A stretch of DNA of 64,000 bases from an uncultured virus (IMG/VR IMGVR_UViG_3300034989_000018). Lineage: Duplodnaviria > Heunggongvirae > Uroviricota > Caudoviricetes. Shown here in pieces: positions 7,077 to 45,417 of this stretch. The stretch lies in the IMG/VR virus record IMGVR_UViG_3300034989_000018. One strand, written 5' to 3'. Below the pieces are notes generated by a model. The model was not told where the DNA came from. It worked only from the letters and a program-made list of their open reading frames with translations, and did not search any database. Position numbers and translations under genes: made by a program. Within the stretch, counting starts at the first letter, position 1. Each line of letters starts with the position of its first letter.

Positions 7077-7592
7077 ATGCCTAGTATAAGACGTATTGAT
7101 GGAAATTATATTAAATCACAAGCGGGTAGTAGTTCAGTCGCTATAACAAGACCAGCTAATACTACAGCATATACAGCAGGTGATGTTGTAGGTACAAACC
7201 CGGCTACAAATTTAGAATTTACAAATATTTTACCAGAATCAAAACAACATTTTTATATAACTGATGCAAAAATAGAAGTAGAAAAGTCAAGCGTCCCTGC
7301 AGGTATGAGTTCATTTACATTACACTTATATGATGCAGCACCGACAGCAATAGCAGATAATTCAGCATGGACTTTATTATTAGCTGATGGAGGTAAATAT
7401 TTAGGTAGTATTCAATTTAGTACTCCTGTAGATTTAGGAACAACTTTAATTTATTGGTTAGAAAATATTAATATAAAGAGGAAATTAGCCACTGGAAGTA
7501 CAAGTATTTATGGTCAACTTGCTACTGATGCAGGATGGACACCAGGGAGTGAAGATGTAATTAATATTGGTTTAGAGACAGTAGGTGCATAA
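7077..7592 (+). CDS. putative virion accessory protein
   Basis: ATG after GAAGGTGG RBS; TRPANTTAYTAGDVVG motif, beta-rich; in head module. Confidence 0.65.
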   Translation: MPSIRRIDGNYIKSQAGSSSVAITRPANTTAYTAGDVVGTNPATNLEFTNILPESKQHFYITDAKIEVEKSSVPAGMSSFTLHLYDAAPTAIADNSAWTLLLADGGKYLGSIQFSTPVDLGTTLIYWLENINIKRKLATGSTSIYGQLATDAGWTPGSEDVINIGLETVGA

Positions 7593-7593
7593 A

Positions 7594-8739
7594 ATGTATG
7601 GTTCAAAAAAAATACGTATAATGCCAAAAAATAAATATGCTACACAAACCTGGAAGACAGATAATATTTCTGCAGGCTCTAGCAATAATAACCAAATAAA
7701 ATTACCTTTTATAGCTACAGGTACATATAATTGTGTAGTTGAATGGGGAGACGGATTAAGTGATTATATAACCACTTGGAATCAAGCAGAAACCACACAT
7801 ACGTATTCATCTATAGGAACTTATGAAGTAAATATAAAAGGTCAGTGTGAAGGATGGCAATTTAATAATAGTGGTGATAAATTAAAATTACTAACTATAG
7901 ATAGATGGGGAGTAGATTTTAGATTAGGTTCTGTAAATAGTAATTTTTATGGTTGTGCCAATTTACAAATTGATACACCTGATTCATTAGATACTTCTGA
8001 TATTACAGATATGTATAGATTATTTTATGAATGTAGTAGTTTAAATGGGGATATAAAGTTCTCAGATACTTCAAATGTAACTAATATGACATACATGTTT
8101 AGAGGTTGTACAGTATTCAATGGTAATGTAACATCATTAAATACTTCAAATGTAACTACTATGGCGGGTATGTTTTATAGTTGTATTGCTTTTAATAAAC
8201 CTGTTAATACTTTTGATACTTCTAAAGTTGAAAATATGTATGCATTGTTTTACAATTGTACAATTTTTAATCAAGATGTTTCTAATTTTGACACTTCTAA
8301 AGTTACAAATATGAGTTATATGTTTAGTGATTGTTTAAATTTTAATCAAGATGTAAGTAGTTTTAATACTGGATTAGTAACAGATATGAGATCAATGTTT
8401 TATGGTACAGGAACATGTAATCCAGATATATCAAGCTGGAATGTAGAAAATGTAACAGACATGAGTTATATGTTATATCAAAAAGTTAATTTTAATAGAG
8501 ATATTTCATCATGGGATATTTCTAATGTAACGACAATGGAAGAAATGTTGACAGGTTGTACAAATTGGTCTACTGCAAATTATGATGCTTCTTTAATTGC
8601 TTGGGACGCTTTAAGTGTCCAAAGTGGAGTTAGTTTTAAATGTTCTTCATATTATACAATTGGGGGTGCAGCAGAAGCATCAAGAACAAATTTAATTACA
8701 AGTGATACATGGTCTATTACTGATTTAGGAGGTGTGTAA
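7594..8739 (+). CDS. BspA-family (DUF285-type) leucine-rich repeat protein with PKD-like N-terminus
   Basis: Repeats of DTSNVTNMxYMFxxCxxFNQDVS; VEWGDG...HTYSSIGTYEV PKD-like motif. Confidence 0.88.
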   Translation: MYGSKKIRIMPKNKYATQTWKTDNISAGSSNNNQIKLPFIATGTYNCVVEWGDGLSDYITTWNQAETTHTYSSIGTYEVNIKGQCEGWQFNNSGDKLKLLTIDRWGVDFRLGSVNSNFYGCANLQIDTPDSLDTSDITDMYRLFYECSSLNGDIKFSDTSNVTNMTYMFRGCTVFNGNVTSLNTSNVTTMAGMFYSCIAFNKPVNTFDTSKVENMYALFYNCTIFNQDVSNFDTSKVTNMSYMFSDCLNFNQDVSSFNTGLVTDMRSMFYGTGTCNPDISSWNVENVTDMSYMLYQKVNFNRDISSWDISNVTTMEEMLTGCTNWSTANYDASLIAWDALSVQSGVSFKCSSYYTIGGAAEASRTNLITSDTWSITDLGGV

Positions 8740-25309: not shown

Positions 25310-26082
25310 ATGTCATTATTACAAAAAGATGTTTTAATTATTTGTAATGATGGTCATCGGATGGCCTAGAAACTGCAGGCAAAAGGACTCCTAAGTTTAA
25401 AGATGGTTCTGTAATACGTGAGAATGAATTTAATCATCCTACCAAAACTATATTTATACAAGCCTGTAAAGATTTTGGATTTAATACATATGATGTATCA
25501 CCAGAGAGAACAGATACACCATTAAAAACACGAACAGATAGAGCAAATAAACAATATGATTCAGGTAAATATAAAGTATATATTTATGTTTCATGGCACT
25601 TTAATTCTATAGGTGTTAGATGGTCAGACAATGTGGGTGGTATTGAAACATTTTATCATAATTCTAGTATCGAAGGGAAAAAATTAGCAACAGCGATACA
25701 CAAACAATTATTAAAAGGTACGAATCTAAAAGATAGGGGAGTAAAAAAAGATACTATAATATATAAAAGTGGATTTCACGAACTAAGAGAAACTAAAATG
25801 ATAGCAGTTCTTTTAGAGTGTGGATTCATGAGTAATCATGTTGAAGCAAATTTGATGAAAAATGTATCATATCAACATGAATGTGCAATAGAAGCATTAA
25901 AAGGTATTTGTGATTATCTTGGTATTAAGTATAAAGAACAAAATAATATAAGTAAATTAGAAGAATATACAAAAATAATCTCACCTGAGTATTGGGAAGT
26001 ATGGATGAAGCATTTTAGAGCATCGTCAAAATTACCTTGGGAAGATTTTTTATTTAATGCATTGAATAAAAAAATACCTTGA
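25310..26082 (+). pseudogene. N-acetylmuramoyl-L-alanine amidase (Amidase_3) endolysin, frameshifted at 25358-25362
   Basis: Frame A: MSLLQKDVLIICNDGH then TAG at 25367; frame B: GLETAGKRTP...ENEFN...SWHFNS...LECGFM; removing CGGAT restores DGHGLETAGKRTP. Confidence 0.85.
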
Positions 26083-26107
26083 TTTAATGTAAAAAGTGTT
26101 ATATAAT
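26079..26107 (+). promoter_or_regulatory. promoter of the tRNA/ncRNA island
   Basis: TTGATT-17 nt-TATAAT. Confidence 0.7.
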
Positions 26108-26196
26108 GTTTATATTAAAGGTTCGTTCTAAAAAAGAACATTATTATCCGGGCGGACTTCTTATTAAAAAAGGGACAGTACCCCGGGTAATAACTT

Positions 26197-26267
26197 TGGA
26201 ATATGGTGTAATGGTAACACATATGATTTTGATTCATATATTTTGGGTTCAAGTCCTGATATTCCAG
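26197..26267 (+). tRNA. tRNA-Gln(TTG)
   Basis: TGGAATA/TATTCCA acceptor, GTGT/ACAC D stem, TATGA-TTTTGAT-TCATA anticodon arm, TTCAAGT T loop; no encoded CCA. Confidence 0.88.
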
Positions 26268-26487
26268 TTTGAACCAACATAGTATTAAAACAGGTTGCGT
26301 AAATTCAATGACTATGATATCAAGGTTTACGACTCAGTGTATGGAGTCTATATAGGATTCGTGAGAAATCCAATAATACACAATCTCACAAGTTAGCCGG
26401 GAACGTTTTATAATATGGTACAATTGTTTACTATTAAATTATATTATCCCACAAGTTTTATTATAAACAAAAATTCTAGTACCGGCT
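26268..26487 (+). ncRNA. unidentified pseudoknotted structured RNA, copy 1
   Basis: Homologous to 26768-27047 with a compensatory change; AACC/GGTT, CATAGT/ACTATG, GTGTAT/ATACAC, GTGAGA/TCTCAC, GCCGG-GAA...AGTA-CCGGC. Confidence 0.7.
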
Positions 26488-26495
26488 ATTTTTAA

Positions 26496-26568
26496 CGCAG
26501 TGTAGCCAAGTGGTAAGGTATCGGAGTCATATTCCGGATAATCGCGGGTTCAAATCCCGCCACTGCTA
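26496..26568 (+). tRNA. tRNA-Met(CAT), initiator-like
   Basis: CGCAGTG/CACTGCT with unpaired C1:T72, TCGGA-GTCATAT-TCCGG anticodon arm, GCGGG-TTCAAAT-CCCGC T arm. Confidence 0.88.
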
Positions 26569-26693
26569 ATATGGAGGTAAAACTCGTAGACATAATTTGG
26601 TAGTTGTCTATTCCGCTTGGGGACATTAATTACCAAGACGCACCGCGGTATGATGGTATTTATATTCATACTACTACCTAAAATTATAAAAAC

Positions 26694-26767
26694 GCCTGGT
26701 AAATTAATGGTAAAGAAAAATTATCGACGGATAATTAATATCTTTGGTTCGATTCCAAAGTCAGGCT
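26694..26767 (+). ncRNA. tRNA-like element (pseudo-tRNA, non-canonical anticodon arm)
   Basis: GCCTGG/TCAGGC acceptor, AATGGTA D loop, TTTGG-TTCGATT-CCAAA T arm; anticodon arm AATTATC-GACG-GATAATT has no 7-nt loop. Confidence 0.7.
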
Positions 26768-27047
26768 TTTGAACCAACATAGTGTAAAATAATATTATAT
26801 AATTTAATTGGGAGAAGCCCTTTCGTAAGATTCGGCGGTATTGGTTCAAGTCCAATTGTAATATTAAAACAGGTTGCGTAAACTCAACGACTATGATATC
26901 AAGGCTTGCGGCTTAGTGTATGGGCCTATAGGGTTCGTGGGAAATCCGAAAATACACAATCCCACAAAATTAGCCGGGAAAGTTTTTCATGGTACGGTTG
27001 TTTACCGTTAAATACATTTTTAAAGCCATCAAATATCTAGTACCGGC
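26768..27047 (+). ncRNA. unidentified pseudoknotted structured RNA, copy 2 (interrupted by a tRNA-like insert)
   Basis: Same modules as 26268-26487; GTGGGA/TCCCAC replaces GTGAGA/TCTCAC. Confidence 0.7.
26793..26864 (+). ncRNA. degenerate tRNA-like insert
   Basis: TATTATA/TGTAATA acceptor-like stem, ATTGG-TTCAAGT-CCAAT T arm; D and anticodon arms degenerate. Confidence 0.6.
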
Positions 27048-27252
27048 AAATTGACTCAACTACCATGTGTAGAAAAGAGACTCTAATTACGCTAATTAAA
27101 AGTGTTTTTTGCAAGAATATTTATATTTTTAATTATTTGAAGAAGATTTAGTCCTTATAAATTAATAATTGTTTAATGTTCAATGTTTCATGTCCCCGGT
27201 TACGGTTGATATCAATCAGATTCGGGGACTTTATCAAAGGGGACTATATAAA

Positions 27253-27360
27253 ATGATAGGAATAAAACAAGAAGTAATACAACACACAATTGATTTTATT
27301 TTATTATTGTTAACTAGCTTTGGCGTAATTAACAGTCCAGATAACAAAGGAACTTTATAG
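27253..27360 (+). pseudogene. holin-like C-terminal fragment / mini-holin (35 aa)
   Basis: MIGIKQEVIQHTIDFILLLLTSFGVINSPDNKGTL resembles the last TM helix and FG(I/V)xNxPxxK end of small clostridial holins; AAAGGGG RBS. Confidence 0.5.
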
Positions 27361-27380
27361 AAAGGTAGGGTTTGTTTATT

Positions 27381-27941
27381 ATGAATTATGAAAAAAATAG
27401 CTGTGAAACACAAGAACAAACAATAATAAGATTAATTAAAGAAAATAATAAACTACATGAAGAAATAATAATAAAAGAGATTATGACAGAAGGACACAGT
27501 AAAGGACATGAAGAAACGATAACAAAATTAACAGAAGAAAACAATAAACTACATGAAGAAATAAAAATATTAAGTAATAAATTAATCGTATATAATAACA
27601 TGCTTAAACATATTGAGTATAGTGTAAAATCAACAGTTGACCAAGTTAGAGATGATATATTTCAAAAAAAAAAAATAAAAAATGAAAGTGAAAGTGAGGA
27701 GATAATAATGAATAAAAACAGATACGATTTAAAACAAATGGAATTTGATGCAAATTCGATGTCAAGAAAGGCTTTTAAAGCAAAATATATGGAAAATTTT
27801 GATAATTGTTTAAAAGCTGGTGAAGATTATGCAAACTTAATGGAGATAGCAAGCCAACTAGGGATAAAAGACCCACAATCGATTGCTAATAAAGCAAGCA
27901 AAGAAGATATAGAAAGATGGCACGCGACCATTAATGGGTAA
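27381..27941 (+). CDS. hypothetical coiled-coil protein (possible second start at 27708)
   Basis: ENNKLHEEI repeated twice; internal GAGGAG RBS plus in-frame ATG after an A12 tract. Confidence 0.6.
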   Translation: MNYEKNSCETQEQTIIRLIKENNKLHEEIIIKEIMTEGHSKGHEETITKLTEENNKLHEEIKILSNKLIVYNNMLKHIEYSVKSTVDQVRDDIFQKKKIKNESESEEIIMNKNRYDLKQMEFDANSMSRKAFKAKYMENFDNCLKAGEDYANLMEIASQLGIKDPQSIANKASKEDIERWHATING

Positions 27942-29221: not shown

Positions 29222-29962
29222 ATGTCTAAAGCTTATAAATTAAATCAAATAATAGCAATAGAAAAAGAAGTAACAGCTAGAACCAAACAGAACATTTCAA
29301 ACATTTATAAATTATTTCAAAAAAATGACTTGTTTAATGGATTTACAAAGAAATATCAACCACTAAATGATGAAGGTGAAAAGTTTGCGGATGAAAATAA
29401 AAAAGTAATTGCTAATGTTGAATCTTTATTAAATTTAATTGTAGAATCAAAAACTGAATCTTTTGACTTTACATTGACTAAAGATACAGGAAATACCAAT
29501 GCTTTTTCTGATATAATAGTTGATGATGTTACTATTGTTAAACATGTACCTGTCACATTTATCATCTATTTAGAAAAACAGTTAATAGATATTAGGACAA
29601 TGATAAACTCTTTGCCTACTTTAGATATAAATGAAGATTGGAAACCCGATATAAATAGCAATATATTTAGAACTGATTCAATTCAAACACATAGAACTAA
29701 AAAAGTGCCTAAAGTTTTAATTAGATATGAAGCGACAGAAAAGCATCCAGCACAGACAGAAGTGTATAATGAAGATGTTATCATAGGTTACTGGAATACT
29801 GAAAAATTATCAGGTGCTATGCCAATTCCAAATAAAGAAAAATTGTTAAAGAGAGTTGAAAAACTCATAAAAGCTGTTAAAATGGCACGTGAAACAGCTA
29901 ATAGTATTGAAGTAGAAAAAAAATATATAGGGAATTCAATATTTAAATATTTGTTTGAATAA
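29222..29962 (+). CDS. conserved uncharacterised protein associated with a downstream tRNA-mimic RNA
   Basis: KLNQIIAIEK...YQPLNDEGE...VPVTFIIYLEKQL...RTKKVP...EATEKHPAQ...GYW...SGA...ARETAN motifs match a family I recall from Actinobacteria and phages (recalled as DUF7873; unverified). Confidence 0.85.
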   Translation: MSKAYKLNQIIAIEKEVTARTKQNISNIYKLFQKNDLFNGFTKKYQPLNDEGEKFADENKKVIANVESLLNLIVESKTESFDFTLTKDTGNTNAFSDIIVDDVTIVKHVPVTFIIYLEKQLIDIRTMINSLPTLDINEDWKPDINSNIFRTDSIQTHRTKKVPKVLIRYEATEKHPAQTEVYNEDVIIGYWNTEKLSGAMPIPNKEKLLKRVEKLIKAVKMARETANSIEVEKKYIGNSIFKYLFE

Positions 29963-29973
29963 ACTTTTAATAT

Positions 29974-30046
29974 GGGATGGTAGCTCAATTGGTAGAGCTT
30001 AGGATTAAAAATCCTAAAGTTGATGGTTCAAATCCATTCTATCCCA
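29974..30046 (+). tRNA. tRNA-Phe-like with atypical AAA anticodon
   Basis: GGGATGG/CTATCCC acceptor, GCTC/GAGC D stem, TAGGA-TTAAAAA-TCCTA anticodon arm, GATGG-TTCAAAT-CCATT T arm. Confidence 0.85.
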
Positions 30047-30193
30047 TTTGAGATAAGCTAAGACTCAAGTTAAATAAAAGCTATTTTTGGAGGTTCGAAT
30101 CCTTTCCACGACTTTAATTCTACTATTTGAAATGTCGTGGTGATGCAATGGCAGACATTAGCTATTAAAATTTAAATTTAAGTTATTCTCAAA
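30047..30193 (+). ncRNA. circularly permuted tRNA-mimic module 1
   Basis: Order: AGCTA, T arm GGAGG-TTCGAAT-CCTTT, CCACGAC, linker, GTCGTGG, D arm, TAGCT; closed by TTTGAGA/TCTCAAA. Confidence 0.8.
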
Positions 30194-40484: not shown

Positions 40485-40889
40485 ATGAATAGATTTAAAC
40501 ATGTTGAAGCATATTGTTTTATGGAATATACATGTGAAAAAAACCATAAACATATTGAAATATTATGGAATTCTAGGGATGGTGTTACACCATTTGTAAT
40601 ACAATGCAATCAATGTGATGGCATGATGCAACATAGCAATTGGCAACATGATACAAGATATATTACAAATACTTTAAACCATTTGAAAGATGGCCAAAGA
40701 TATTTTGTTGATATAGATGAAAAATTATATATTAAAAATATTAAAAAATTAATTGAAGAATATAAATCAGATGAAGAATATATAAAATATTTAAAAAGTA
40801 ATATATATAAAGCATTAAATGGCAGATTTAGAGAAGTTGTAAATCTGGGTGAACCAGGAATAAAAACATATAAGAAAGAGGTAATATAA
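40485..40889 (+). CDS. conserved phage zinc-binding hypothetical protein
   Basis: EAYCFMEYTC...WNSRDGVTPFVIQCNQC. Confidence 0.7.
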   Translation: MNRFKHVEAYCFMEYTCEKNHKHIEILWNSRDGVTPFVIQCNQCDGMMQHSNWQHDTRYITNTLNHLKDGQRYFVDIDEKLYIKNIKKLIEEYKSDEEYIKYLKSNIYKALNGRFREVVNLGEPGIKTYKKEVI

Positions 40890-41491
40890 TGAGAAAAATA
40901 CCAACATTATTTAAACGTGACCCAGAAACAGGATTAGTTACCCAGGAAATTACACCTGGATATGAATGGGTTGTTGAAGATTCTAAAAATACTATAGCTA
41001 CTAGACAATATGATGGAATAACATGTCTTATTAAACGTGATAGGATTTATAAAAGATATGATTGTAAGAAAGGTGAAAATCCACCAGCGGGTTTTATTCC
41101 TGCACAAGAACCAGATAAAATAACTGGACATTATCCAGGATGGTTAGAATGTAATCCTAATAATCCAGAAGATAAATATTATTTTGAAGGATTATTGAAT
41201 TTATATGAAACTGAGGCTCAATATGATACTTTTTATAGATTTTTTAATAGTACTTATGAATTAATAGGTGAAAAAATACGAGGGAATCCAGAAAATATTA
41301 TGGGACACCAATTAATATTACATGGTCGTGAAATAATTCAAATAGGTAAGATATCTTATAATACTATAAAAGAATATCTTAAAATAACTGATATAGAAGG
41401 TATAATTTTCTATTATGGTAATATATGTGCTGCGTATGCTACCATGTGTAAAATTAAAAAGAAAGATTTTGGATTCAAGAGAGGTAATTAA
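40889..41491 (+). CDS. RNA ligase-like protein (DUF5565/Rlig1-like) with motif-I Lys replaced by Gln
   Basis: MRKIPTLFKR...ATRQYDG...KRYD...TYELIGEKIRGNP...IEGIIF...KIKKKDF. Confidence 0.7.
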   Translation: MRKIPTLFKRDPETGLVTQEITPGYEWVVEDSKNTIATRQYDGITCLIKRDRIYKRYDCKKGENPPAGFIPAQEPDKITGHYPGWLECNPNNPEDKYYFEGLLNLYETEAQYDTFYRFFNSTYELIGEKIRGNPENIMGHQLILHGREIIQIGKISYNTIKEYLKITDIEGIIFYYGNICAAYATMCKIKKKDFGFKRGN

Positions 41492-42763: not shown

Positions 42764-42973
42764 ATGAAAAATGATTATATGTGGTATAAATCAAAGAAAA
42801 TTTGCATTCAATGCAAAAAGAAAAAAGCCCATAAAAACAGGGTAAGATGTTTGAATTGCCTTGAAAAAGATAGCTTATATAGATACATAAAAAGAAATGA
42901 AGGTGAATTAAATGTCAAATATAAGAAAGATATGGATATTAAAAGAAAAAATAAGACTAAAAAATATGATTAG
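42764..42973 (+). CDS. small zinc-finger protein
   Basis: CIQC...CLNC. Confidence 0.6.
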   Translation: MKNDYMWYKSKKICIQCKKKKAHKNRVRCLNCLEKDSLYRYIKRNEGELNVKYKKDMDIKRKNKTKKYD

Positions 42974-43273
42974 ATTATTTGATTATATGCTATCTCAATA
43001 CCATGCTATGTATGGAGATGAGACAAGATTAGGGGTTCTGGAAGCATATAAGAATAATCTAATCAATCGCGAATATGCAATTAGAGAATTGCAAGAATTG
43101 GAGGAAAATTAAATTATGAAATTTAAAATTCCTTGAACCAAAAAGTTATAAATTTGCTAAAAAAATTGAAATAGTTGATTTAATGGAAAAAATTTTAAAT
43201 CATAATAAACTAAATCAAATATCAATTTTTGATATTGATATGAAAATTAATTAATGAAAAAGAGGTAATATAA

Positions 43274-43561
43274 ATGTCAAATGAATTAAAAAAGAAGTTT
43301 AAAATCGGTGACAAAGTAAAAATTAAAAAATGTGATGAAGATTTATTTTTCATTGCCGGAATACATAATCATATGACAAAAGAAGCTATAAAAATATATT
43401 TTAGTATTGCTCTTATCACCTTTAAAATTGATAGTTGTTGGAAAGAAGAATTAATCGGTGAGATTTATTTAGTAGGAAAAGAAAATCATTATATTATTAA
43501 AAGTGAAAGTAAATATCATGTATTTTGTAATGATTATGAAGAAATGGAGTTAATGATATAA
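43274..43561 (+). CDS. hypothetical protein (KOW/SH3-like start)
   Basis: KFKIGDKVKIK. Confidence 0.6.
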   Translation: MSNELKKKFKIGDKVKIKKCDEDLFFIAGIHNHMTKEAIKIYFSIALITFKIDSCWKEELIGEIYLVGKENHYIIKSESKYHVFCNDYEEMELMI

Positions 43562-43890
43562 ATGTTAAGAAGAGTATTAATTTTTAATAATAAAACAAAA
43601 GAAGTATTATATGAAGGATATTTAATACAATTTATAAATGATAAAGATGATTTTTATGCACTTGTTGAGCTGGATGATGGTACTATAATTATTCCATATA
43701 TTCAAAATATTAAATTTAAATATCCAACTGAGGTGTAAAATTATGAAAGAATGTAAATATACAATTCCTAAAGAAATATCATTACACGATAACCGGTGTT
43801 GGTTTGGCTATTGTATTTATTGCAACAAATATATAAATTTTTGCGAATATTTAAATAAATATATTTGTTGTGATTGTTGCAATTTAAAAG

Positions 43891-43929
43891 AAAAAAAACC
43901 TAGTTTTTAATTATCTAGGTTTTTTTTTC
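43891..43929. terminator. bidirectional terminator
   Basis: A-run-CCTAG/CTAGG-T-run between convergent genes. Confidence 0.7.
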
Positions 43930-45417
43930 TTATTTTGCAACTTTTTCATTTGTTTTATTATTTATTCTTGTTCTTCTAGTTGTAGTATTTTCTGTAAATG
44001 CTAAACCATCATTTACTAAATTTTTTCTGACCTTTTTCCAATCATTATCTTTAGTAATTAAATGTTTGAAAGTTTTTTTTGATATGACTTCATTTTCTTT
44101 TAAAGCTTTTACTTGATTTTTAATAATTGCATATTTATCCCAAAATGTTAATTCCTCAGGTTCTAAATTATCTTTAAAAAATTTTAAGCTATCTTTAAAA
44201 TTTTTAGGATTATCCTTAGAATTTTTTAGGCTATCCTTAAAATTTTCAGGATTATCCTTAGAATTTTTTAAGCTATCCTTAAAATTTTTAGGATCATCTT
44301 TAAATGTTTTTGACTTATCCTTAAAATTAATTGAATGTTTTAGGTTATCCTTAAAATTTTCTGGGTTATCCTTAAAATTTTTAGGCTTATCTTTATCTTG
44401 ACTAGAAATTCCTAGTATACCTTTGGTATCACTTGTTTCTAGCTGTTTTTTATCCTTAAAATTCTCAGGCTTGCTTAGGCTACTTATATTATTATCCTTA
44501 AAATTTTTAGGATTATCTTTAAAATCATTTAAAATTTCTAAGCTATACTCAGATGGTTTAAGGTTATCCTTAAAATTTTCTGGGTTATCCTTAAAAAATT
44601 TTAGGTTATCCTTAAAATTTTCTGAGTTATCCTTAAAAATTTTTAGGTTATCCTTAAAATTTTCTGGGTTATCCTTAAAAAATTTTAGGTTATCCTTAAA
44701 ATTTTTTCTTATCTCAAAATATGGTTTCATTAATTTTATCCTCAACCAATCAAAAAAAATTGTTTTTAACATATGCAAGATTGATATTTTATCCTGCATT
44801 TCATTTTCGATAGGTGTAGTAAAATTTTTATGTTTTTTATCGTGTTTTAAAGTATTTATTGTTATAATACTAATATCAAGCATAATACATATTAAAATAG
44901 TAACTATCTTACCTATTAAAGGTGTATCTAATCTTATTACTTTAATTAAGGTGTTATAATTTCCAATGATACTAATAGGGACTAGTATCATTGTTATCAT
45001 ATTTATAACACCATAACTTTTATTAAAATATAAATATACCTGAGTCTTAATAGCAGCTACATAAAAAGTAAGTATTTGAATAATTGTTAAAATTACTATT
45101 AAGGTAATTGATAGAAAACTAACATAAAACAATCCATATCCCATAGGTGTTAATATAATAGAAGACAGCATCAATAAAAATAATAAAACTGTCATAAATT
45201 TAGTATTAGCTATACTTTCAAGATAATTTAATTTAGATTCTACTTTATCATGTTCTATTTTTAAATTAAAATTTTCTATTTCATTTTGTTTTAATTCAGT
45301 TTCAAACATTAAATTTTCTATTCTATTTTTTACATTTGTTTTTCTTATATCATTTTTAAATTTGTTGCAAAAATCTATTAAACTTACTACTACATTAGGT
45401 TTTTCTTTTTTATCCAT
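43930..45417 (-). CDS. multi-pass membrane protein with heptapeptide (xxNFKDN) repeats
   Basis: Four hydrophobic helices then about twenty FKDN-type repeats; GAAGGTG RBS before ATG 45417. Confidence 0.8.
   Translation of the reverse strand: MDKKEKPNVVVSLIDFCNKFKNDIRKTNVKNRIENLMFETELKQNEIENFNLKIEHDKVESKLNYLESIANTKFMTVLLFLLMLSSIILTPMGYGLFYVSFLSITLIVILTIIQILTFYVAAIKTQVYLYFNKSYGVINMITMILVPISIIGNYNTLIKVIRLDTPLIGKIVTILICIMLDISIITINTLKHDKKHKNFTTPIENEMQDKISILHMLKTIFFDWLRIKLMKPYFEIRKNFKDNLKFFKDNPENFKDNLKIFKDNSENFKDNLKFFKDNPENFKDNLKPSEYSLEILNDFKDNPKNFKDNNISSLSKPENFKDKKQLETSDTKGILGISSQDKDKPKNFKDNPENFKDNLKHSINFKDKSKTFKDDPKNFKDSLKNSKDNPENFKDSLKNSKDNPKNFKDSLKFFKDNLEPEELTFWDKYAIIKNQVKALKENEVISKKTFKHLITKDNDWKKVRKNLVNDGLAFTENTTTRRTRINNKTNEKVAK
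44161..44705. repeat. 21-bp coding tandem repeats
   Basis: TTATCCTTAAAATTTTCTGGG / TTATCCTTAAAAAATTTTAGG units in two blocks. Confidence 0.9.

Follow-up and report, generated by a model that had tools for sequence, protein, structure and literature searches.

What are the non-coding sequences that stand directly behind tRNA and tRNA-like elements in the RNA gene row of an uncultured Caudoviricetes virus (IMG/VR record IMGVR_UViG_3300034989_000018), and do they specify a folded RNA in their own right? The 64,000 nucleotides (nt) analysed here, referred to throughout as the window, are phage DNA with a GC content of 26.5%, and the row lies between the endolysin gene (25633-26082) and the next open reading frames (ORFs), with every element on the + strand. 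A first-pass annotation, made from the letters of the sequence, had described two copies of a ~220-nt structured RNA in this row, punctuated by tRNAs. Comparison with relatives shows that the conserved entity is a shorter element of about 120 nt, which we call unit A, with a predicted fold of four short hairpins and three H-type pseudoknots, each with a 6-bp second stem, of which the last two interlock and anchor the 3′ end. As a structure, this previously uncatalogued phage RNA family is well supported by the comparison; its transcript and function are treated below as proposals.

A triple-pseudoknot fold shown by comparison

Unit A occurs twice in the window. Aligned with MAFFT, 26268-26495 and 26768-27060 have a mean column identity of 76% with one ~80-nt insertion in copy 2, which bears out the two diverged copies first described. 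Both begin with the same 16-mer, TTTGAACCAACATAGT, at 26268-26283 behind tRNA-Gln (26196-26268) and at 26768-26783 behind a tRNA-like element (26694-26767), again as annotated. The element is non-coding, as first annotated, with no reading frame open in all members of the family. All relatives conserve the first ~120 nt only (a core of 116-124 nt), which holds the pairings that the first-pass annotation had grouped as modules A and B. Its third module, C, a hairpin of the form GCCGG-GAA...AGTA-CCGGC, is indeed present in both copies, but it is missing from most homologues, and the five distinct sequences that carry it have only the 5-bp closing stem and the GAA/AGUA flanks in common, with no covarying pair; module C was rejected as part of the family on these grounds. 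Since it is an optional appendage, the ~220-nt unit is a composite. What follows the core in other lineages is a terminator-like hairpin, a tRNA-like element, a second conserved non-coding element (unit B, described below) or A-rich hairpins.

The fold was assessed with a covariance model, R1, built from 18 sequences with a structure of four hairpins only (H1-H4). Its 21 matches were re-aligned to give 20 distinct rows, and pairs were counted over seven helices (37 pairs), namely H1-H4 and three pseudoknots, K, PK1 and PK2, of which R1 has no knowledge. Standard pairs fill 98.2% of the 739 cells, compared with 30.7-46.2% when the 3′ partners are slid by one to three columns. Both sides have changed at 14 of the 37 pairs, and none of 500 shuffles matched the observed pairing, double-change counts or covariation score (15 of 500 did so for further pair types). 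Most double changes fall in H2 (five of six pairs) and H3 (all four pairs), while H1, K and PK1 contribute one each, PK2 contributes two and H4 varies on one side only. Among the pseudoknots, K changes from UA to CG in five rows, PK1 from UA to GC in one row and PK2 from GC to AU at two positions; locus L001 carries alternative PK2 strands (AGCTG/CAGCT) that a column alignment does not credit. The proposal of a structured RNA with kissing or pseudoknot pairings is thus upheld by their covariation, and every pairing annotated for modules A and B is present in both window copies, which are well recognised by a model derived from relatives (Table 1).

One pairing had to be reassigned. GTGTAT/ATACAC had been taken for a plain enclosing stem, and is a pseudoknot instead (PK1), because GTGTAT forms the loop of a helix that had been overlooked, ACTC/GAGT (26332-26335/26344-26347). 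The geometry of the pseudoknots is that of the classical H-type, with one or two loop nt, six pairing nt and then the 3′ strand of the hairpin. G-U pairs are common on the + strand, with UG in 15 of 20 rows at one H3 pair and GU in 12 of 20 at one H4 pair; on the opposite strand each of them would become an A-C mismatch, so the + strand RNA is the molecule under selection. Pairing of a conserved single strand, AUAUCAAG, with the loops of neighbouring tRNAs or tRNA-like elements was also considered by eye, and was dropped when a 7-nt complement was seen in L010 and none in the others.

The novelty of the element relative to Rfam, as first suggested, is borne out by every search. At gathering score, cmscan with Rfam 15 returned three tRNAs and nothing else from the whole window. 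At E ≤ 10, the seven matches in 26000-27300 included no GOLLD, ROOL or self-cleaving ribozyme, and only sub-gathering, chance-level matches (E 3.7-4.8) touched the edges of the unit; the 13 matches from 12 related loci at E ≤ 0.5 likewise placed no family on the unit and comprised no GOLLD, ROOL or ribozyme. Nor is unit A a tRNA, as the Rfam tRNA matches in 26000-27300 are confined to 26197-26267, 26496-26568 and 26793-26864, and ARAGORN agrees. A literature search found no description of the motif. Seven of the unit A contig identifiers are absent from the readable tables of a catalogue of 10,006 viral candidate RNAs (PMC10690425), although the motif may be among its unnamed candidates. An array of non-coding RNAs templated by a reverse transcriptase (retron, DRT2 or UG27-like, as in 10.64898/2026.09.22.753630) was considered and rejected, as no reverse transcriptase gene is adjacent; no reverse transcriptase domain was found in 51 window ORFs searched with Pfam or 28 searched with PHROGs, which together cover all 16 ORFs of at least 300 amino acids.

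Spread, tRNA-shaped elements and modular exchange

Relatives were sought by pattern scans; as a relative in which the typed motifs have changed escapes such a scan, the size of the family given here is a lower bound. The unit A core was recovered from 12 distinct IMG/VR contigs, 8 metagenome contigs and 1 of 185,579 species genomes. In IMG/VR, 6 of the 30 loci with the exact 16-mer are real, the other 24 being chance matches in coding-looking DNA, and the corresponding yields are 5 of 54 loci for the 5′-strand pattern, 10 of 11 for the 3′ pattern, 10 of 10 for a combined 5′ pattern and 11 of 20 for a relaxed 3′ pattern (10 known contigs and L145, the one of the 10 others that R1 recognised). 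All 8 loci in metagenome contigs are real, as is 1 of 7 in the genome collection. Two further loci, L062 and L074, have 26 nt in common with the 5′ part of the unit and no model match, and were treated as chance. A blastn search of 50,697 cultured phage records with 26100-27250 yielded one match, of 60 nt within tRNA-Gln, and no copy of the unit.

Three of the relatives, the phage contigs G002, G003 and G004, measure 38-42 kb, and terminal repeats are present in two; none of the three has a match to the window terminase. They share few proteins with the window, at 31-47% identity, together with one 95-amino-acid ORF that is 80% identical in G004, and no phage protein common to all four genomes was found. 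Unit A DNA is 72-96% identical in these contigs and constitutes the best (G003) or sole (G002) nucleotide match to the window, so that the comparison shows the unit to be spread across unrelated phages. The single match in the genome collection, G001:C5 (L154, L155), is a ~69.7-kb contig of a metagenome-assembled genome (MAG), near-identical to the window, and both of its ends repeat window 43930-44513. It is a complete, terminally redundant phage genome binned with the MAG, and its GC content is 24-26%, while two further contigs of that MAG stand at 34-36%. Given this mismatch, assigning a host by way of the MAG was rejected as unsafe.

The place of the unit is constant. In all nine clusters (formed at 95% identity) the 5′ strand lies a few nt past the 3′ end of an acceptor stem, which extends to the whole family the tRNA or tRNA-like 5′ flank annotated in the window. 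Three clusters have a canonical tRNA upstream (Gln, Thr or Met) at a spacing of 3-7 nt, with CCA not encoded, a feature of all four canonical tRNAs beside units. The other six have a tRNA-shaped element that cannot decode, with a GACG-capped stem, long inserts or an aberrant middle; those of L028 and L115 match the Rfam tRNA model at 31.8 bits and the others were judged by folds and by eye. G002-G004 contain exactly one unit A each and no tRNA called by ARAGORN, and the tRNA-like element exists there only alongside unit A. Tetraloop-bearing elements of the GACG type, with a stem of 6-7 bp, are seen 5′ of unit A in L020, L028, L090, L097, L114, L115 and L119; some of this type have ~95-nt inserts, and none is called by ARAGORN. 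Elements of this shape cannot decode and may serve as processing handles or decoys.

The window has two tRNA-like elements. The first has a 6-bp acceptor stem, a 7-bp stem with the GACG tetraloop and a T-arm (z = -2.8, with 1 of 200 shuffles as good); it is called neither by ARAGORN nor by the Rfam tRNA model at E ≤ 10, and has a counterpart in L116 (~155-228). The second scores 31.8 bits with the Rfam tRNA model against a gathering score of 29 and is not called by ARAGORN. It breaks copy 2 in its first hairpin loop (26793-26864), and R1 spans a similar insertion in L016 (match 80-280). As to transcription, the promoter-like sequence at 26079-26107 of the window also precedes tRNA-Thr in L092 and L094, and L117 has a promoter-like site with 11 of 12 matches ahead of its tRNA; promoter-like sites in the region number 13 against 9.7 expected. 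No terminator-like site was found on the + strand of window 25900-27500, and the last bases of the unit in L010 mark the start of a terminator-like hairpin of 11 bp that has a T-run.

The two window copies had been read as a duplication, and this is not a local one. Copy 2 is at least 95% identical to the copies of L020, L028, L115 and L016 and groups apart from copy 1. Recombined copies also exist: in L092 (~1585-1689), L094 (~1819-1924) and L120 (1089-1193), a cut-off 3′ fragment of a further unit A, comprising the 3′ strands of H4, PK1 and PK2, is fused to the element found behind copy 2 at 27050-27120 of the window. This fusion looks like a recombination scar, and weak 26-bit R1 matches downstream in the same three loci were rejected as copies, since they are such 3′ fragments fused to other sequence. 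G001:C5 and L016 both lack the inner portion of the module C that belongs to copy 2. Because copy 2 clusters elsewhere, recombined copies exist and G001:C5 lacks part of module C, the RNA row is a mosaic of exchangeable modules. Two side observations belong here. Hairpins just 5′ of the L092, L094 and L120 fragments match wcaG RNA at 27.5-28.8 bits, which is below the gathering score of 42. Elsewhere in the window (within 42889-43940), segments 42901-43102, 43247-43568 and 43560-43879 are 89-95% identical to G004 in another order and orientation, and look like mobile or exchanged modules that are partly non-coding.

A proposed trans-acting RNA and its alternatives

We consider it probable that unit A is a stable, trans-acting RNA of ~120 nt that is processed by means of a tRNA handle and represents a new family, with the fold shown by comparison. 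In this proposal the transcript would begin with the tRNA or tRNA-shaped handle, which would draw in RNase P and RNase Z, and host tRNA-processing enzymes would free unit A. Such an excision, already put forward in the first-pass annotation, is a reasonable reading. The 5′ end would be produced by RNase Z-type cleavage past the discriminator of the upstream element, which we propose because these elements encode no CCA; action of RNase Z on CCA-less precursors is established in Bacillus-type bacteria. The 3′ end would be set by RNase P at the next tRNA or tRNA-like element, or by a terminator. The freed RNA would be locked by its pseudoknots, with both ends buried in helices. Such a stable folded particle would work in trans in the infected cell by binding some component of the host. 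A host target is favoured because the unit moves between unrelated phages with no co-inherited phage protein, and our guess is a factor of the tRNA- or RNA-handling or defence machinery.

Several points weigh against this proposal. The family is small and close-knit, with nine clusters, a mean identity of 83% and a minimum of 66%; many helices are invariant and hence uninformative, the shuffle control ignores shared ancestry, and K and PK1 each depend on a single covarying position. Nested minimum free energy folding of either copy is no better than that of shuffles (z = -0.5 and -1.1), which is to be expected of a pseudoknotted RNA but lends no support. The tRNA-likeness upstream of the unit in L001 and L010 is based on folds (z = -1.4 and 0.0) and inspection by eye, and one extra copy (L094b/L120b) lies behind unit B with no tRNA-like element. 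Furthermore, the use of RNase Z on CCA-less precursors would depend on the host, and no result points to a specific target.

Perhaps the closest parallel is found in phage T4, whose RNAD (species 2, 119 nt) and RNAC (species 1, 139 nt) are non-coding RNAs of ~120-140 nt, as is unit A. The T4 rnaD gene (71053-71171, minus strand) begins 2 nt past tRNA-Arg (71173-71247) and is followed by rnaC, both on the strand of the T4 tRNA row, much as unit A begins at 26270 behind a tRNA-Gln that ends at 26268. Both T4 RNAs are stable and have no known role according to PMC3014915 and PMC9697503. The likeness does not extend to homology in sequence or structure: with filters off and E ≤ 10, R1 placed no match on rnaC or rnaD within 70.7-72.7 kb of T4, the best (9.5 bits, E 0.18) falling in segB. 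Unlike its T4 counterparts, unit A also occurs in phages without tRNA genes, behind a non-decoding tRNA-like element. By this analogy, unit A may best be read as a new family of the RNAC/RNAD kind, in kind and not by descent.

Since the work on T4, small folded RNAs have been recognised within the tRNA rows of phages; GOLLD and ROOL are known as well, yet none of them has been assigned a function. With ~120 nt and a well-supported fold, unit A would suit structural work and mutate-and-rescue experiments, and the tRNA-less phages, with a single cassette of handle and RNA (in the L010 lineage with a terminator-like hairpin as well), offer a clean genetic layout. It may thus be a tractable entry to the role of such RNAs, and to the question of whether phages use tRNA-shaped elements purely as processing handles.

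The alternatives are taken in descending order of probability. The first is a bolder version of our proposal, which we regard as unlikely though worth stating. Here the unit and its handle would form a two-part cassette, in which a non-decoding tRNA-shaped handle is joined to a triple-pseudoknot effector that disarms or hijacks a host factor recognising tRNA-like RNAs, or else the cargo would be a new catalytic or self-assembling RNA. Candidates for this factor are the ribosome, an enzyme of repair or processing and a defence nuclease that targets tRNAs, and its disarming or hijacking would explain why the cassette hops between unrelated phages. Such a cassette would be the bacterial-virus counterpart of MALAT1/mascRNA and of the herpesvirus tRNA-microRNA-encoded RNAs (TMERs). 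The TMERs of murine gammaherpesvirus 68 consist of a tRNA-like element joined to downstream precursor microRNA hairpins, with tRNase Z making the first cut, as described in PMC4045068. They demonstrate that a virus may retain tRNA-like elements without decoding ability solely as handles for tRNase Z, which is how the handle of unit A would work in our main proposal as well. As in the TMERs, a viral tRNA-like element that does not decode lies directly 5′ of a non-coding RNA in six of the nine unit A clusters. However, TMERs belong to a eukaryotic virus and have an RNA polymerase III promoter and a microRNA cargo, whereas unit A is found in bacterial viruses with a sigma-70-like promoter and a pseudoknotted cargo. 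The likeness is therefore one of analogy and not homology, and cleavage at the unit A handle would follow from established tRNA processing.

Other tRNA-shaped modules are also linked to pseudoknots. Tandem pseudoknots stand beside tRNA-like structures in the upstream pseudoknot domain of the 3′ untranslated region of tobacco mosaic virus and in PK2-PK4 of transfer-messenger RNA (tmRNA), and these resemble unit A in having three H-type pseudoknots in a row connected to a tRNA-shaped module. They differ in order, as the pseudoknots of unit A follow the tRNA-like part, and unit A has no CCA end and belongs to a DNA phage; ARAGORN found no tmRNA in the window.

A second alternative is that unit A is a cis-acting 3′ trailer without independent life, which helps the upstream tRNA to mature, to remain stable or to receive its CCA. 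The constant spacing of 3-7 nt behind the acceptor stem and the four of four canonical neighbours without encoded CCA would be natural for a trailer. We nevertheless hold this to be distinctly unlikely, since in six of nine clusters the upstream element cannot decode, its anticodon arm being replaced by a GACG tetraloop or large inserts, three phages without tRNA genes keep the cassette, one copy lies behind unit B instead and most phage tRNAs do without such a trailer.

Somewhat less probable again is an RNA-only assembly of the GOLLD or ROOL type, in which unit A would be a building block and K (CAUAGU/ACUAUG) an intermolecular contact. Covariation is blind to whether a pairing is intra- or intermolecular, and in ROOL a pairing first taken as tertiary turned out to be quaternary, as reported in PMC12286853. 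The same source describes GOLLD and ROOL as phage or prophage RNAs with pseudoknots and kissing loops, often near tRNA islands, with tRNAs sometimes nested in the GOLLD linker, an arrangement similar to that of copy 2 with its tRNA-like element in the H1 loop. Were this element excised, the two pieces of copy 2 would have to pair in trans. Against an assembly, the geometry fits an ordinary intramolecular H-type pseudoknot with 2 loop nt and a 6-bp stem, and unit A is five to seven times smaller than GOLLD and ROOL, which range from several hundred to more than 800 nt, and matches no Rfam model.

We give little credence to a new self-cleaving ribozyme that cuts at its own 5′ border and dispenses with host enzymes; the first-pass annotation had left room for a ribozyme role, and no result speaks in its favour. 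Interlocked pseudoknots and highly conserved junction nt are typical of small ribozymes, and a position exactly at the processing junction would fit. However, the ribozyme searches described above were negative in the window and in 12 relatives, the order of helices, in which a hairpin loop pairs downstream three times over, is unlike the hepatitis delta virus-like, twister, pistol and hatchet topologies, and the tRNA-shaped handle already accounts for cleavage.

Conservation at the level of DNA, as a recombination, attachment (att) or origin site or a selfish mobile cassette with an incidental RNA fold, appears slightly more doubtful still. Classical integration sites include tRNA 3′ ends, the unit passes from one phage to another unrelated one, copy 2 resembles the copies of other phages more closely than it does copy 1, cut-off and recombined copies are seen in L092 and L094, and the 5′ strand of the unit resembles the 3′ end of the second tRNA-like element. 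Yet selection on DNA leaves unexplained both the compensatory changes that keep seven helices and the one-strand G-U pairs, and the unit is present in 0 to 2 copies per genome and not dispersed.

A cis-regulatory leader or riboswitch of the downstream gene is barely credible: the fold is compact, pseudoknotted and aptamer-like, and L010 has a terminator-like hairpin and an ORF, in this order, downstream of the unit, but the downstream content varies by lineage (module C with tRNA-Met, unit B, a tRNA-like element, A-rich hairpins or a terminator), and neither an alternative pairing between unit and terminator nor a match to a riboswitch family was found.

Layout of the RNA gene row and neighbouring features

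The row and the strands of each helix are listed in Table 1. Its promoter-like site is placed by consensus only, and a tRNA-Met closes copy 1 with its module C on the 3′ side.

Table 1. Elements of the RNA gene row of the window and helix positions in the two copies of unit A
Feature	Position	Strand	Basis or remark
Sigma-70-like promoter (TTGATT, 17 nt, TATAAT)	26079-26107	+	10/12 consensus matches; fronts the row
tRNA-Gln (UUG), CCA not encoded	26196-26268	+	ARAGORN; Rfam tRNA 61.5 bits; 5′ neighbour of copy 1
Unit A copy 1, conserved core	26270-26393	+	R1 133.9 bits, E 2.8e-23
Copy 1 H1	26272-26275/26293-26296	+	Pairing read from sequence
Copy 1 K	26278-26283/26311-26316	+	Pairing read from sequence
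Copy 1 H2	26298-26303/26326-26331	+	Pairing read from sequence
Copy 1 H3 (ACTC/GAGT)	26332-26335/26344-26347	+	Pairing read from sequence
Copy 1 PK1 (GTGTAT/ATACAC)	26337-26342/26376-26381	+	Pairing read from sequence
Copy 1 H4	26355-26359/26367-26371	+	Pairing read from sequence
Copy 1 PK2	26361-26366/26384-26389	+	Pairing read from sequence
Module C copy 1, optional hairpin, GAA/AGUA (loop-E-like) above 5-bp GCCGG/CCGGC stem	26396-26486	+	
tRNA-Met (CAU), CCA not encoded	26496-26568	+	ARAGORN, Rfam
Unit B	26572-26690	+	Between tRNA-Met and tRNA-like 1
tRNA-like 1, acceptor stem and T-arm; 7-bp GACG-tetraloop stem replaces anticodon arm	26694-26767	+	Fold
Unit A copy 2, 5′ strand	26770-26783	+	H1 5′ half AACC 26772-26775; K 5′ half CATAGT 26778-26783
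tRNA-like 2, within H1 loop of copy 2; aberrant 13-nt anticodon-loop region	26793-26864	+	Rfam tRNA 31.8 bits, E 0.0002
Unit A copy 2, remainder	26865-26969	+	R1 match 26848-26969, 123.3 bits, E 2.8e-21
Copy 2 H1 3′ half	26872-26875	+	
Copy 2 H2	26877-26881/26906-26910	+	
Copy 2 K 3′ half	26890-26895	+	
Copy 2 H3	26911-26914/26922-26925	+	
Copy 2 PK1	26916-26921/26952-26957	+	
Copy 2 H4	26931-26935/26943-26947	+	
Copy 2 PK2	26937-26942/26960-26965	+	
Module C copy 2	26973-27047	+	Fold z = -2.25

Unit B is the second conserved non-coding element of the row. About 115 nt of it also lie between two unit A copies in L094, L095 and L120 (L094 ~1556-1668), and an exact 25-mer from it is found in two IMG/VR contigs only; it turned up only in close relatives of the window phage. 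Its fold is modest (z = -1.4), and a TTGGTA loop can pair with a downstream TACCAA.

Beyond the row, a hairpin-bearing stretch (GTCCCCGG ... CGGGGAC) lies at ~27165-27366, before the first downstream ORF. It is 79-81% conserved in G004 and also visible in L020, L028, L090, L097, L092 and L119, phages that otherwise share little, and may help to regulate the gene that follows. Farther on, at 29973-30047, ARAGORN places a tRNA-Phe whose anticodon, AAA, is unusual (Rfam tRNA 70.9 bits), 11 nt past a DUF7873 ORF (29222-29962).

The protein-coding genes assigned with Pfam and PHROGs comprise those for terminase, portal, major head protein, tape measure and endolysin, followed by primase-helicase, DNA polymerase and other replication genes. 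For the ORF at 40889-41491, PHROGs gives 'RNA ligase' (phrog_14301, E 2e-54) and Pfam gives no family. In the structural region, DUF285 repeats ('Mycoplasma protein of unknown function') are found in the ORF at 7585-8739 and hint at a low-GC host.

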